Program-made: the position numbers and the translations under genes
In this document: in pieces, positions 57,166 to 63,574 of the stretch
Position numbering within the stretch: the first letter of the stretch is position 1
Layout of the letters: every line of letters begins with the position of its first letter
Notes under the pieces: generated by a model
The model's input: only the letters and a program-made list of their open reading frames with translations
Database searches by the model: none
What the model was told of the DNA's origin: nothing
DNA from: an uncultured Gammaproteobacteria bacterium
Lineage (GTDB): Bacteria; Cyanobacteriota; Vampirovibrionia; 2-02-FULL-35-15
Direction: 5' to 3'
DNA length: 64,000 bases
Assembly: GCA_964602915.1 (NCBI GenBank)
Contig: CAZRTB010000001.1
Location: 598,417 to 662,416, forward strand

Positions 57166-60100
57166 TTAAGAAAATCTAGCTATTCTGACGTCTATATGTC
57201 TTCTTATCCAGTGATCAAAAAGAGGAGTTGATGACTGAATCTCTTTATCATTATCTGAAAGTATAATTGCTGTACCTTCTCTAGATGGTGGAATCCATAG
57301 ATTGTTAGAAATAGATTTTCCTGCATATTGATATTTGCTAGATTGTTCAGTACTTCTTCTGGCTTTAGCCACATGTCCGAGTAGATTTAAATTTAAAATA
57401 AAATCTACTAAATGTGTTCTTTCTCCAAACTCATCACTTATTTTTTCTGAACTTAATAACCTGCTTATTTCTTTAGGATTAAGCGATAAAGGTTCGATTA
57501 TCTCTCCCCTATAGTAAAAATGTAAATGCTGAGCTTGCCTTTTAGATAAATTCTTCTTAAGTATAGAAATTAATTTTTCAATGTTTGGAGATATTCTTCC
57601 ACCAGAATTATTTATTAACCATTCAATGTCTACTATATAGTGATAAGGAGCAGGGTCATTTGATTCTCTGCTTTCTTTAACAACATAATCGTCAGTTTTT
57701 CCATATACTTTCCAGTTTATTTGTCTTACATCATCACCGGCAACATATTCTCTGTGAGTATGAAATTCTCCAGAGTTACTTTTTCCATATATTTTTGATG
57801 GACCTGTTCTTCTTATAAAACTAACATGTCCATTTTTAAAAATAGGCTCTTCAGAATAAATTTTTCCTTGAATTGGTGCAGAAGCAATTCTACAGGCTTC
57901 TTCAAAATAAGGACCACTTTCTGAAAGGAAATTAATAACATCAGCTTGTTTTAATTCTTTTATACTCTCAACTAACCTTTCAACCCAGTAAGATTTAGTT
58001 TTAACAGAAGAAATTTTACTTAAGATGTTTAAACCCTTATTTTTAGGTGTATATGAAGGTTCAGGATCTTCTATTTCACGCTCTATACTTGAAATCTCAG
58101 ACTTAATATGACCGGTATTTGGAATAGGTGGTATTTTCATAAGCGTGGGAAGAATCTCTACTAGAGTTTTGCTAATTCCACTCAGGTCAAATTTTTTGCT
58201 AGGCTTACTTACTTTAGGTTCAGAATGAGTAATGGGTAAGCCTCTTGAAACCCTTAAAGCAAGAATTAAAACTTCTCTGTCGTTGAGAGTACTAAGCTCA
58301 TTTCTTAACTCATGAAAATAAAGTTCTTTGGAATTTCTGGGAATTAATAGTTCTCTTACTTTTTTAGCTTTTTCCGATGGGGTTAAATTATTATTTTTTA
58401 AAAGTGAAGCCAATTCTTCTTTTAGATTACTAAAATCATCTCTCTTTTGTAACATGTTATTTATGATGTTAAATCTATATTGCGTGCTTTGAGAGATAGT
58501 TTTTTCATATAAAAAGGAATGAACTCTTTCTGTAGTAATACAGCAATGACTTAAAATTAGCTCTTTAGCCCCAGGAATCTTTTCAAACAAGGATTTTAAA
58601 ATTTTAGCTTTCTCTCCTTTAATCTCCCACTCACAGCCAAAAAGATCTAATAACTCTTTATGCTCATCATTGGAAGATAAAACCTCAAGAATAACGTCTT
58701 TAGGTAAATCTTCTAAAGAAAAAGATATTTCTCTTCTCTCTATTTTAGGTTTTAATTTACTATTCCAGATCTCTTCTTCAGAAGTAGGAGGTTTTTCTAT
58801 CTCAAGCCCAAAATACTTTATAAAGTAAAGAGCATTTTTTAGTTCTGGACTTTCTAACTCTGATAAGCCACGATCTAAAGCTAAACAAGGTCTTGATAAA
58901 TCAAGAGACCCATCTTCATTAAAACAAGCAAGCCTGTCTCTATTTCTGTAAAAGCGTTCTTTTTCTTGAGAGCTTGCATTTCTCCAGAAAGTAGGAGGAG
59001 TTAGAAAATCTTTTTCTAATATTCTTTCAGCTTCTTCTTTTGAAATATATTCTTTTAAAGAAATCCCTAAATCTTCAAAATTAGAGATTAGAGTTTTTAT
59101 ATCACTATGGAAAGACCAGTGATATTGTTCAGTTTCAAAATCATGAGAAGTTATTTCAAACATATCATCCTGATAAACAATCTTTTCTTCAATTAGATTG
59201 TTAAAAGGAACAGATTCCTTAGTAATAGATCTCCCATGACTTCGATTACCTGCCAAGTCTACAATTTGACTTTTAAACAATCCTTTTTTACACCTTTCGC
59301 CTATACATCTTTTTAAGAGTTCGGAGGGAATAATCCTCCCATCTCTTTCTTCTGTATATTTTTTAAAGCTTTCATTCTTAGATAGCGCTTTTAAAAGGTT
59401 TTCCATAGGAGTTTTATCTTTCTCCCGAGCTAATTCTATAAACAGATTTATTATATGTTTTTCCTGATTAGGTATAGTTTCTAAAAGTTTTAAATAATTT
59501 CCTAAAGCCATTTCGTCATTACTTTTTGAAGTGGTAGAAATTCTTGTTTGTAGATGAAAGATGTGATTATTTTCGTAATATATCTTATCTTTCAGAGAGA
59601 GTAATATTTCTGATATCTTCTTCTCATTACCATTAGAGGTATCAAATGCAAGTAAGTTAAAGGATATTTCTTTAGCTTCTGAAAGAGAAATCTCAGATAA
59701 TTTTTCAGGATCTACTAAATTAAAAAGAATCTCTCCATAAGTCCTACAAAAAGACCAATCATGACTATGTTCTTTAATTAGCCTTAGTATTTGAACAGAA
59801 CTAGCAGAAGCTTCTAAGCTTGATAAATGCTTTTTAGTGATACCGATAATATCTTTATTGTTTATCTCTCTTAAAAATCTGGCTAGTTCTAGAGGGATTT
59901 CACCTGTTTTTTGTAAGCTTCTAATGTAATTCGATAAATACTTTTTTTTAGAATCAATTGCTAAAGAAAGTTCAACTATTTCTTTAATATTATTATTCCC
60001 TAATATTGTATCCCAGGATTTTAAAAGCTTCTCTAACTCAAGAGCAGTTTTATATGCATCAAAATGAACATCTGATTTATGGCTACTTCTATCTTCTCTT

Positions 60101-62589: not shown

Positions 62590-63574
62590 AGTTTTTTTAA
62601 TAGGAAGTAAAGCCATATCCATTATTATGTCAGATGAAAATAAAGATGGTTTTCGTAATACACCTGTCTATGTCCCAGTGAAAGCTGTAATGTTGGGTGA
62701 TATAAAAATAGAAATTATTAACCCAAAAGTCAATTTAGGGAAAAAACTTTTTTTTGATCCTATACTTTCAAAAAATGGAAAATTGAGTTGTGCTAGTTGC
62801 CATAAACCAGAACATGGTTTTGCAGATGATAAACCGGTTTCTTTAGGTATCAATGATCAAAATGGTGATAGAAATACTCCTACTATTTATAATACAAAAT
62901 ACTTGAAGCTATTATTCTGGGATGGGCGTGCTATGAGTCTTGAAGAACAGGCTCTTGGACCGATTCAAAATCCTGTTGAAATGGGAGAAACCATAAAAAA
63001 TGTTTTAATTAAATTAAATGCTAATGAAGAATATAAAAAGCAATTTGAATCAGCATATGGACCAGGTCCTATTACTGAAGAAAAATTAGCAAGCGCAATT
63101 GCAGAATTTGAGAGAACACAAATATCTATAGATTCAAACTATGACAGATATATTTCGGGAGATTTAATGGCTTTAACCCCTTCTGCTAAAAGAGGGCTAG
63201 ATTTGTTTAAAGGAAAAGCCATGTGTATAGCCTGTCATAAAGGTCAGGATTTTACAGATGGAGATTTTCATAATATTGGTCTTCCTATTACTAATGATGT
63301 TGGAAGATCAAAAATCTCAGTTTCTGGAAAAGATACAAGAAAATTCAAAACACCTACACTTAGAGAAATTGCAATCACTGCTCCCTATTTTCATAATGGA
63401 ATGTTTGAGACTTTAGAACAAGTAATCGCTTATTATAATGCTGGTGGTGGAGAGGATACATATAAGGATCCTTTAAAACAACCTCTTAATTTAAATGAAG
63501 AAGAACAAAAAGATTTAGTGGAATTCTTAAAATCGCTTACTGGAAGACAAGAAAAGGTTCTTCCACCGAAATAA
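62552..63574 (+). CDS. di-haem cytochrome c peroxidase (CCP/MauG family)
   Basis: Signal peptide. Two haem c motifs are present, CASCH and CIACH, with the spacing and surrounding residues (GPIQNPVEM, FKTPTLREI..TAPYFHNG) typical of bacterial CCP. Confidence 0.85.
   Translation: MKKTFLILLLISIVFLIGSKAISIIMSDENKDGFRNTPVYVPVKAVMLGDIKIEIINPKVNLGKKLFFDPILSKNGKLSCASCHKPEHGFADDKPVSLGINDQNGDRNTPTIYNTKYLKLLFWDGRAMSLEEQALGPIQNPVEMGETIKNVLIKLNANEEYKKQFESAYGPGPITEEKLASAIAEFERTQISIDSNYDRYISGDLMALTPSAKRGLDLFKGKAMCIACHKGQDFTDGDFHNIGLPITNDVGRSKISVSGKDTRKFKTPTLREIAITAPYFHNGMFETLEQVIAYYNAGGGEDTYKDPLKQPLNLNEEEQKDLVEFLKSLTGRQEKVLPPK

Follow-up and report, generated by a model that had tools for sequence, protein, structure and literature searches.

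A predicted TgpA-like transglutaminase-type module and a divergent DUF58-type domain in one 1560-residue protein encoded next to an SNase-type nuclease

Introduction

TgpA (PA2873) of Pseudomonas aeruginosa is an inner-membrane protein of 668 amino acids (aa) with six helices (DUF3488) and a periplasmic transglutaminase (TGase) domain; it exhibits TGase activity in vitro, is essential in this organism and is encoded by a gene that is co-transcribed with PA2875 and PA2874 (PMC3507681). The bifidobacterial PFNA operon lists genes for a MoxR-type ATPase, a DUF58 protein and a TGase, with the function of DUF58 stated as unknown (PMC12067865). The present analysis concerns a giant gene encoding a 1560-aa protein and the nuclease gene directly upstream of it, both located in a 64-kb stretch of contig CAZRTB010000001.1 that is referred to below as the window. 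The giant protein is predicted to combine a TgpA-like module and DUF58 in one chain, a new architecture assembled from two partners of known gene association, and no description of a fusion between a TGase-like module and DUF58 was found in the searchable literature. As the first-pass annotation of this DNA had reported, the two genes lie on the same strand with a gap of 69 nucleotides (nt):

61918..62622, minus strand: SNase-family nuclease gene, 234 aa, upstream of the giant gene (from the listing of open reading frames, ORFs)
61849..61917, minus strand: spacer of 69 nt between the two genes
57166..61848, minus strand: giant gene, 1560 aa (from the ORF listing)

TgpA (6G49, 6G4H) shares with the modelled giant protein a beta-rich subdomain as well as the TGase core. 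The giant protein differs from it in length (1560 versus 668 aa), in the absence of a membrane segment and of a DUF3488 match, in a structure-based identity of ~9-12%, in the predicted use of Glu for Asp and in carrying DUF58 fused in cis, and its TGase core escapes Pfam while that of TgpA is easily recognised. At the gene level, the upstream neighbour encodes an SNase, no MoxR gene is found nearby and DUF58 is present in cis instead of being encoded by a separate gene. The DUF58 proteins of MoxR-type AAA+ operons (the MRP subfamily, the PFNA operon and an archaeal gene pair designated L004) have the pattern F..REY.pGDD.R.IDW.a.AR and the first vWA-like strand in common with the giant protein, and in both settings DUF58 is associated with a TGase (PMC12067865 for the operons). 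Canonical DUF58 proteins are, however, stand-alone proteins of ~280-320 aa encoded directly after a MoxR gene, as in L004, whereas here the domain is part of a giant protein, at its C-terminal end. Bacterial TGase-like putative cysteine proteases (Cytophaga hutchinsonii 3ISR and Parabacteroides 3KD4) and the pseudomurein endoisopeptidases PeiW and PeiP match much more weakly than TgpA and over the core only, and they differ from the giant protein in accessory domains and size.

The giant protein and its family

The giant ORF spans 4.7 kb in DNA of ~31% G+C and has a full-length homologue (P0002) at 46% identity, and for these reasons it is not a chance reading frame. A word-indexed homologue search recovered only the giant protein itself and P0002, also when a 12-sequence profile was used. 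With aa 200-620 as the query, an exhaustive HMMER search of 1.84 billion cluster representatives yielded 27 proteins at E<=0.001, most of them 1300-1860 aa long and with the matched module similarly placed; P0029 (1961 aa), which matches only the helical tail of the query, was dropped as a family member. The family is small and undescribed, rare but real, and its host genomes span 31-57% G+C. No member was found on plasmids, on phages or among the BFVD viral structures, PADLOC returned no match for the giant protein, and a metagenome contig scan with the family alignment found nothing.

The best 19-residue hydrophobicity of the giant protein is 0.95, the value of a soluble protein with no membrane segment, and its N-terminus reads as lacking a signal peptide. 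Its parts are as follows:

61237..61848, minus strand: N-terminal family-specific region, aa 1-204, conserved within the family
60154..61236, minus strand: predicted TgpA-like module, aa 205-565, a beta-rich subdomain followed by the TGase core and two helices
60724..61236, minus strand: beta-rich subdomain, aa 205-375, preceding the core, with the invariant Tyr358
60283..60675, minus strand: predicted TGase-like catalytic core, aa 392-522
57847..60153, minus strand: long middle region, aa 566-1334 (~770 residues), less conserved, with scattered family motifs
57169..57846, minus strand: DUF58-type domain, aa 1335-1560, vWA-like but without the DxSxS metal site (Pfam and hhalign)
57628..57765, minus strand: DUF58 signature F..HREY.AGDD.R.I.W..., aa 1362-1407 (Pfam, tblastn and hhalign)

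The N-terminal region appears to be helical in character and has no Pfam, NCBIfam or PDB sequence match. Likewise, no significant Pfam or PDB profile match and no recognisable domain was obtained for aa 566-1334.

The transglutaminase-like core

The assignment of the core draws on a structural model, on residue conservation and on profile matches elsewhere in the family. AlphaFold2 reached a predicted local distance difference test score (pLDDT) of 37.8 when given two sequences, and 92.3 with a predicted template modelling score (pTM) of 0.90 when given a 22-sequence alignment. The resulting model consists of a beta-rich subdomain followed by an alpha+beta core of the TGase/papain-like type. 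When it was compared with the PDB by Foldseek, the top matches were to the periplasmic domain of P. aeruginosa TgpA (6g4h and 6g49, E ~1e-8, probability 1.00), followed by the Cytophaga TGase-like putative cysteine protease 3isr; protein 4.2 and XPC/Rad4, which have a non-enzymatic TGase fold, were also among the structural matches. Three residues of the core form the predicted triad:

60508..60510, minus strand: Cys447 codon, predicted nucleophile, invariant in 22/22 sequences and at the start of a modelled helix
60382..60384, minus strand: His489 codon, predicted general base, invariant and on a strand of the model (277-291 in model numbering)
60334..60336, minus strand: Glu505 codon, predicted third triad residue, 16 residues after His489 and at the next strand

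Across the 22 aligned sequences of aa 205-565, which share 20-40% identity, only Tyr358, Cys447 and His489 are invariant, with Asp496 nearly so, and Glu505 is nearly invariant in an alignment of 12 full-length members. The Glu505 column contains Glu or Asp in all but one sequence, followed by Ala, Ser or Pro and then Thr or Ser, and we take this position to be equivalent to the DPT-motif Asp of TGases. Asp496, another candidate for the triad acid, was set aside, as it lies in a hairpin turn while Glu505 stands at the next strand with the His+16 spacing. The outlier P0030 carries Tyr at the position of Cys447 and Asn at that of His489; the two residues have thus been lost together, which is the pattern expected of a catalytic pair. 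The TGase-core signature comprises a conserved Tyr ending a helix, G-x-C at a helix start, GIPA, a His on a strand and an acidic residue 16 positions later, and the local sequence pattern of the giant-protein core fits it. The motifs quoted in the first-pass annotation are all present at the residues given there, namely GHC at aa 445 (with Cys447), GIPA at 462, GGGF at 468 and GHAKLIFFDEHG at 488.

Profile searches were less productive for the giant protein itself. Scans with Pfam and NCBIfam of the whole protein, of aa 200-400 and of aa 380-560 gave no TGase match, for the last segment not even at E<=10, so that the direct Pfam check suggested in the first-pass annotation came out negative for both the whole protein and aa 380-560. 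PDB sequence searches with a two-sequence profile, a 22-sequence domain profile and a 12-sequence full-length profile produced nothing significant either. A core-only family profile reached TgpA at no better than E=2.3, with GHCEH...GIPA..v.G aligned with SGFCAHYAGAMAFVLRAAGIPARVVAGYQ, an alignment that informs on register only. Among the family members, 7/22 matched Transglut_core (PF01841) at E<=1, the best at E=9.8e-4; in P0027 the match (16.8 bits, below the gathering score of 23) extends over aa 368-468 and profile positions 9-99 of 108 and covers Cys418 and His460. An assignment of aa ~392-522 as a TGase-like Cys-His-acid core with Cys447 as the candidate nucleophile is therefore supported by these Transglut_core matches together with the TgpA-like model, the invariance of Cys447 and His489 and their joint loss in P0030. 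The first-pass proposal of such a core is upheld in this form and sharpened to a TgpA-like one.

The C-terminal DUF58 domain

The last ~225 residues of the giant protein are conserved across the family, and DUF58 is the only Pfam domain above threshold in the entire chain. PF01882 matches at aa 1365-1396 with 24.1 bits against a cut-off of 23.4, and with 26.4 bits when the C-terminal fragment is scanned, which contradicts the earlier statement that no other domain could be recognised across the 1560 aa. The aligned segment corresponds to profile positions 2-33 of 216. Six further members were scanned and all of them match DUF58, five above the cut-off (24.8-47.9 bits) and P0031 below it (16.5 bits). 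In addition, the family C-terminal profile aligned with the archaeal DUF58 protein of L004 at an hhalign probability of 97.8% (E=8.7e-13), covering the signature and the vWA-like domain as far as its first strand. A tblastn scan of genome contigs found only an archaeal DUF58 gene (L004), located directly after a MoxR-type ATPase gene; VDSSGSM in the archaeal protein, a metal site of the DSSGS type, corresponds to VDIEWL in the giant protein. By its sequence, the C-terminus of the giant protein is a divergent DUF58 domain. No MoxR homologue was detected in the window, in loci L001-L003 or in loci L005-L009.

The upstream nuclease

The nuclease matches the Pfam SNase domain PF00565 (E=3.3e-19). 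Its closest NCBIfam models are NucI and EcnA, with scores below both equivalog cut-offs (NucI-like E=1.8e-21, 76 versus 250 bits), and it also matches the PADLOC candidate defence model C3a212, which contains an SNc domain (E=6.5e-19), over the generic SNase domain only. Alignment with the S. aureus nuclease indicates that the Ca-binding and catalytic residues D71, D73, R92, D97, E100 and R137 are kept. In it, D71 and D73 are paired with D19 and D21 of the S. aureus enzyme, R92 with R35, D97 with D40, E100 with E43 and R137 with R87. At the N-terminus, a Lys-rich stretch is followed by a run of 11 hydrophobic residues (aa 21-31) with a mean Kyte-Doolittle value of 3.1:

62509..62622, minus strand: nuclease aa 1-38, probable signal peptide with a basic n-region, the core VFFIFFLLSIF and then SISA/YS

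The nuclease thus has the appearance of a protein with a Sec signal peptide, which is likely. A lipoprotein signal, brought up by the sequence QRC, was rejected as unlikely, as the orthologue encoded in L001 (54% identical, with the same N-terminal layout) has no Cys there. Staphylococcal thermonuclease (Nuc/NucI, PF00565) has in common with this protein an export signal and a full SNase domain that includes the residues for Ca binding and catalysis; the nuclease differs from it in falling below the NucI equivalog cut-off and in a Lys-rich C-terminal tail of ~30 residues. The PF00565 match and the S. aureus alignment confirm the SNase catalytic landmarks that had been noticed earlier, and the hydrophobic N-terminus, a probable Sec signal, fits the signal peptide noticed with them. 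Judged from its sequence, the nuclease is an ordinary Sec-exported, Ca-dependent SNase-type enzyme that adds nothing new.

The nuclease-giant gene pair across the family

A scan of the spacer revealed neither a terminator-like hairpin nor a promoter-like site, and for this reason co-transcription of the two genes is possible; they may share one transcript. An AGGG element resembling a Shine-Dalgarno sequence lies 5' of the ATG of the giant gene, and (G/C)AGGG is kept in the aligned 94-nt spacer of L001.

The only other genome in which the pair was found is that of P0002 (L001), which also keeps the flanking CCP_MauG and LpxI genes, and the pairing is therefore part of general synteny. No SNase gene is present in the available flanks of any of the six distant family loci (P0007, P0008, P0009, P0010, P0017 and P0020; 140 nt upstream were covered for P0017), and a tblastn search with the window nuclease across the loci matched only the window's own copies and L001. 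The gene neighbours of the six distant loci are unrelated to one another. In our reading, the nuclease is a neighbour of the giant gene by local synteny and not a functional partner of its product; a lineage-specific operon of the two genes is possible. The co-conservation that a conserved two-gene system, as suggested in the first-pass annotation, called for was not found, with the pair confined to the window and L001 and seen at 0/6 distant loci, and on the standard set in that annotation the proposal of a conserved unit is refuted.

Several observations were made on the surroundings of the pair and of its distant relatives. An orphan ORF of 157 aa (56692-57165, plus strand) converges on the giant gene, its last base at 57165 abutting the end of the stop codon at 57166; the gene calls of L002 and L003 include this ORF, for which Pfam, NCBIfam and PADLOC gave no match. 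On the other side, the starts of the nuclease gene and the divergent gene for CCP_MauG (a di-haem cytochrome c peroxidase) are ~4 nt apart according to the L002 calls and 10 nt apart in L001 (window 62552-62627), so that each of the two promoters must be located within the neighbouring gene; in its longest form, the CCP ORF extends 71 nt past the nuclease start. At the P0008 locus, a divergent second giant ORF of 1529 aa without a Pfam match is present (L007, 125-4714, minus strand), which was considered as a possible paralogue and rejected as unrelated, having no BLAST similarity to the family. P0009 and P0010 (L008, 3895-5022) are encoded a few kb from genes for RuBisCO-like proteins, an arrangement that may be due to synteny between related genomes. 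The P0009 locus also contains genes of the methionine-salvage type (ARD, Aldolase_II and HAD), a patatin gene and a gene for an EF-hand protein.

Interpretation and alternative explanations

The explanation that we favour, and consider reasonably probable, is that the giant gene encodes a soluble multidomain enzyme composed of an N-terminal region, a TgpA-like module with Cys447-His489-Glu505, a middle region of ~770 residues and a C-terminal DUF58 domain, with the nuclease as a mere neighbour. TGase-fold enzymes perform transamidation or cross-linking, deamidation and (iso)peptide cleavage. The core of the giant protein would accordingly catalyse a thiol-dependent acyl transfer that acts on proteins or peptides, with transamidation/cross-linking, deamidation or (iso)peptide cleavage as the candidate reactions: Cys447 would react with a Gln side chain or a peptide bond in a protein substrate to give an acyl-thioester, which an amine (cross-linking) or water (deamidation or cleavage) would then resolve. 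DUF58 is normally a separate protein whose gene sits between those for a MoxR AAA+ ATPase and a TGase; in the giant protein it probably functions in cis as a partner or regulatory module, and a MoxR-type ATPase from another part of the genome may dock on it. The middle region would provide substrate or partner binding. Since both domains are located in one chain without membrane anchors, they would share a compartment, in all likelihood the cytoplasm, as opposed to the periplasm for the TGase domain of TgpA.

A number of points weigh against this explanation. The giant protein has no Pfam TGase match and the family profile is not significant against PDB sequences, which leaves predicted structure and motif conservation as the basis of the TGase assignment, and the third residue of the predicted triad is Glu rather than Asp. 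In hhalign, the alignment with DUF58 does not extend beyond the first ~50 profile positions, and the metal-site motif is absent. A MoxR gene is missing from the window as well as from every family locus, and a link to a MoxR ATPase is thus unsupported by context. Approximately 60% of the giant protein (aa 1-204 and 566-1334) matches nothing in the Pfam and PDB searches, and its substrate, reaction type and cellular location are all inferred. Finally, co-transcription with the nuclease gene is possible given the 69-nt gap without a terminator.

The last point would fit a functional unit of the two genes, for instance an attack or defence module with a co-expressed secreted nuclease and a TGase-type effector. 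The shared strand and the short gap without terminator-like hairpin or promoter-like site are in line with such a unit, as are the retention of the arrangement in the sole close relative despite protein identities of 46% and 54% and the match of the nuclease to the SNc-containing C3a212 model. We nevertheless regard it as highly improbable, because the SNase gene is missing from the available flanks of all six distant loci and the conserved CCP_MauG and LpxI genes in L001 explain the pairing by general synteny; moreover, the nuclease carries an export signal and the giant protein none, and the giant protein has no PADLOC match while that of the nuclease to C3a212 covers the generic SNase domain only. 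More can be said for an effector or toxin that a host-associated or predatory bacterium translocates into another cell, where the TGase core would deamidate, cross-link or cleave a target protein. TGase- and papain-fold deamidases and proteases are common among bacterial effectors, and a large, soluble and mostly orphan sequence with a narrow and patchy distribution (27 clusters in 1.84 billion) would suit such a role. Several family loci have eukaryote-like or effector-like neighbours, including patatin and EF-hand proteins, and the nearest named relatives of the phosphoenolpyruvate (PEP) carboxykinase encoded in the window are metagenome-assembled genomes (MAGs) of Melainabacteria, a group that includes predatory members. 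On the other hand, the window contains no secretion-system genes, there are no plasmid or phage matches, family hosts at 31-57% G+C suggest an old chromosomal family, and DUF58 points to the housekeeping association of MoxR, DUF58 and TGase instead of to effectors; we therefore consider this role unlikely.

A third possibility is that the TGase-like module has no catalytic role and acts as a scaffold or in binding, like that of protein 4.2 or Rad4/XPC, and that the giant protein is structural or an adaptor. Pfam is blind to the core in the giant protein, protein 4.2 and XPC/Rad4 appear among the structural matches and P0030 has lost both Cys and His, all of which could be explained in this way. 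Conversely, Cys447 and His489 are the sole invariant core residues across 22 sequences with 20-40% identity and the acidic residue is kept, a pattern typical of selection for catalysis, which renders a scaffold improbable. Both the effector and the scaffold roles are less likely than the soluble multidomain enzyme.

A more far-reaching version of the enzyme hypothesis, for which we have rather little confidence, would view the family as a natural fusion that reveals DUF58 as a dedicated partner or regulator of TgpA-type TGases; no adjacent MoxR would be needed, and the giant proteins would function in the cytoplasm or be translocated as effectors by Melainabacteria-like bacteria, with the middle region selecting substrates. 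In many bacteria the genes for a MoxR ATPase, DUF58 and a TGase occur together, and the presence of a TgpA-like module and DUF58 in one soluble chain argues that both act on each other or on a common substrate. If this version were true, the giant protein would offer a soluble single-chain model for the MoxR-DUF58-TGase module, which is widespread, obscure in its mechanism and, through its TGase, essential in P. aeruginosa. A soluble chain of this kind would also be more amenable to experiments than a membrane protein with six helices. The analysis further brings out a family of predicted TGase fold whose scanned members escape the current Pfam thresholds.

Other features of the window

The window looks like ordinary chromosomal DNA of a low-G+C (~32%) Gram-negative bacterium, and its genes include those for a lipopolysaccharide heptosyltransferase, pyrimidine catabolism, leucine and aromatic amino-acid biosynthesis and PEP carboxykinase. 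For the latter, an ATP-type enzyme (50827-52428, minus strand), the nearest named relatives in Candidatus Melainabacteria MAGs show 64-67% identity and metagenomic sequences 74-81%, a tentative indication of the taxon from which the DNA comes. Between the aspartokinase and PEP carboxykinase genes, three consecutive orphan ORFs (52505-55160, minus strand) encode proteins of 630 aa, of 84 aa (Pro/Glu-rich and overlapping) and of 135 aa; Pfam and NCBIfam gave no significant match for any of them, and all three are among the gene calls of the matching contig L002.

A 1499-aa protein (35680-40179, plus strand) contains DUF4011, superfamily 1 helicase domains (AAA_11/AAA_12) and a C-terminal restriction-endonuclease-like domain (MTES_1575). 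Its match to PDC-S37, a candidate defence model of PADLOC, covers nearly the full length (1036 bits), and it also matches Hhe (E=5e-141). The following ORF (40270-41937, plus strand, 555 aa) has no Pfam or PADLOC match. The region 35680-41937 is probably an anti-phage defence locus.

Surface-like or eukaryote-like proteins are encoded in a cluster at 6696-11872: one has MORN repeats, a second (822 aa) combines collagen triple-helix repeats with DUF7151, and a third (657 aa) weakly matches the zinc site of matrixins (Peptidase_M10). An apparent reductive pyrimidine-catabolism cluster (15504-24768, plus strand) encodes an aldehyde dehydrogenase, a hydantoinase-like amidohydrolase, a beta-ureidopropionase-like CN_hydrolase, a class III aminotransferase, a cytosine/purine permease and both subunits of a dihydropyrimidine dehydrogenase of the PreT/PreA type.

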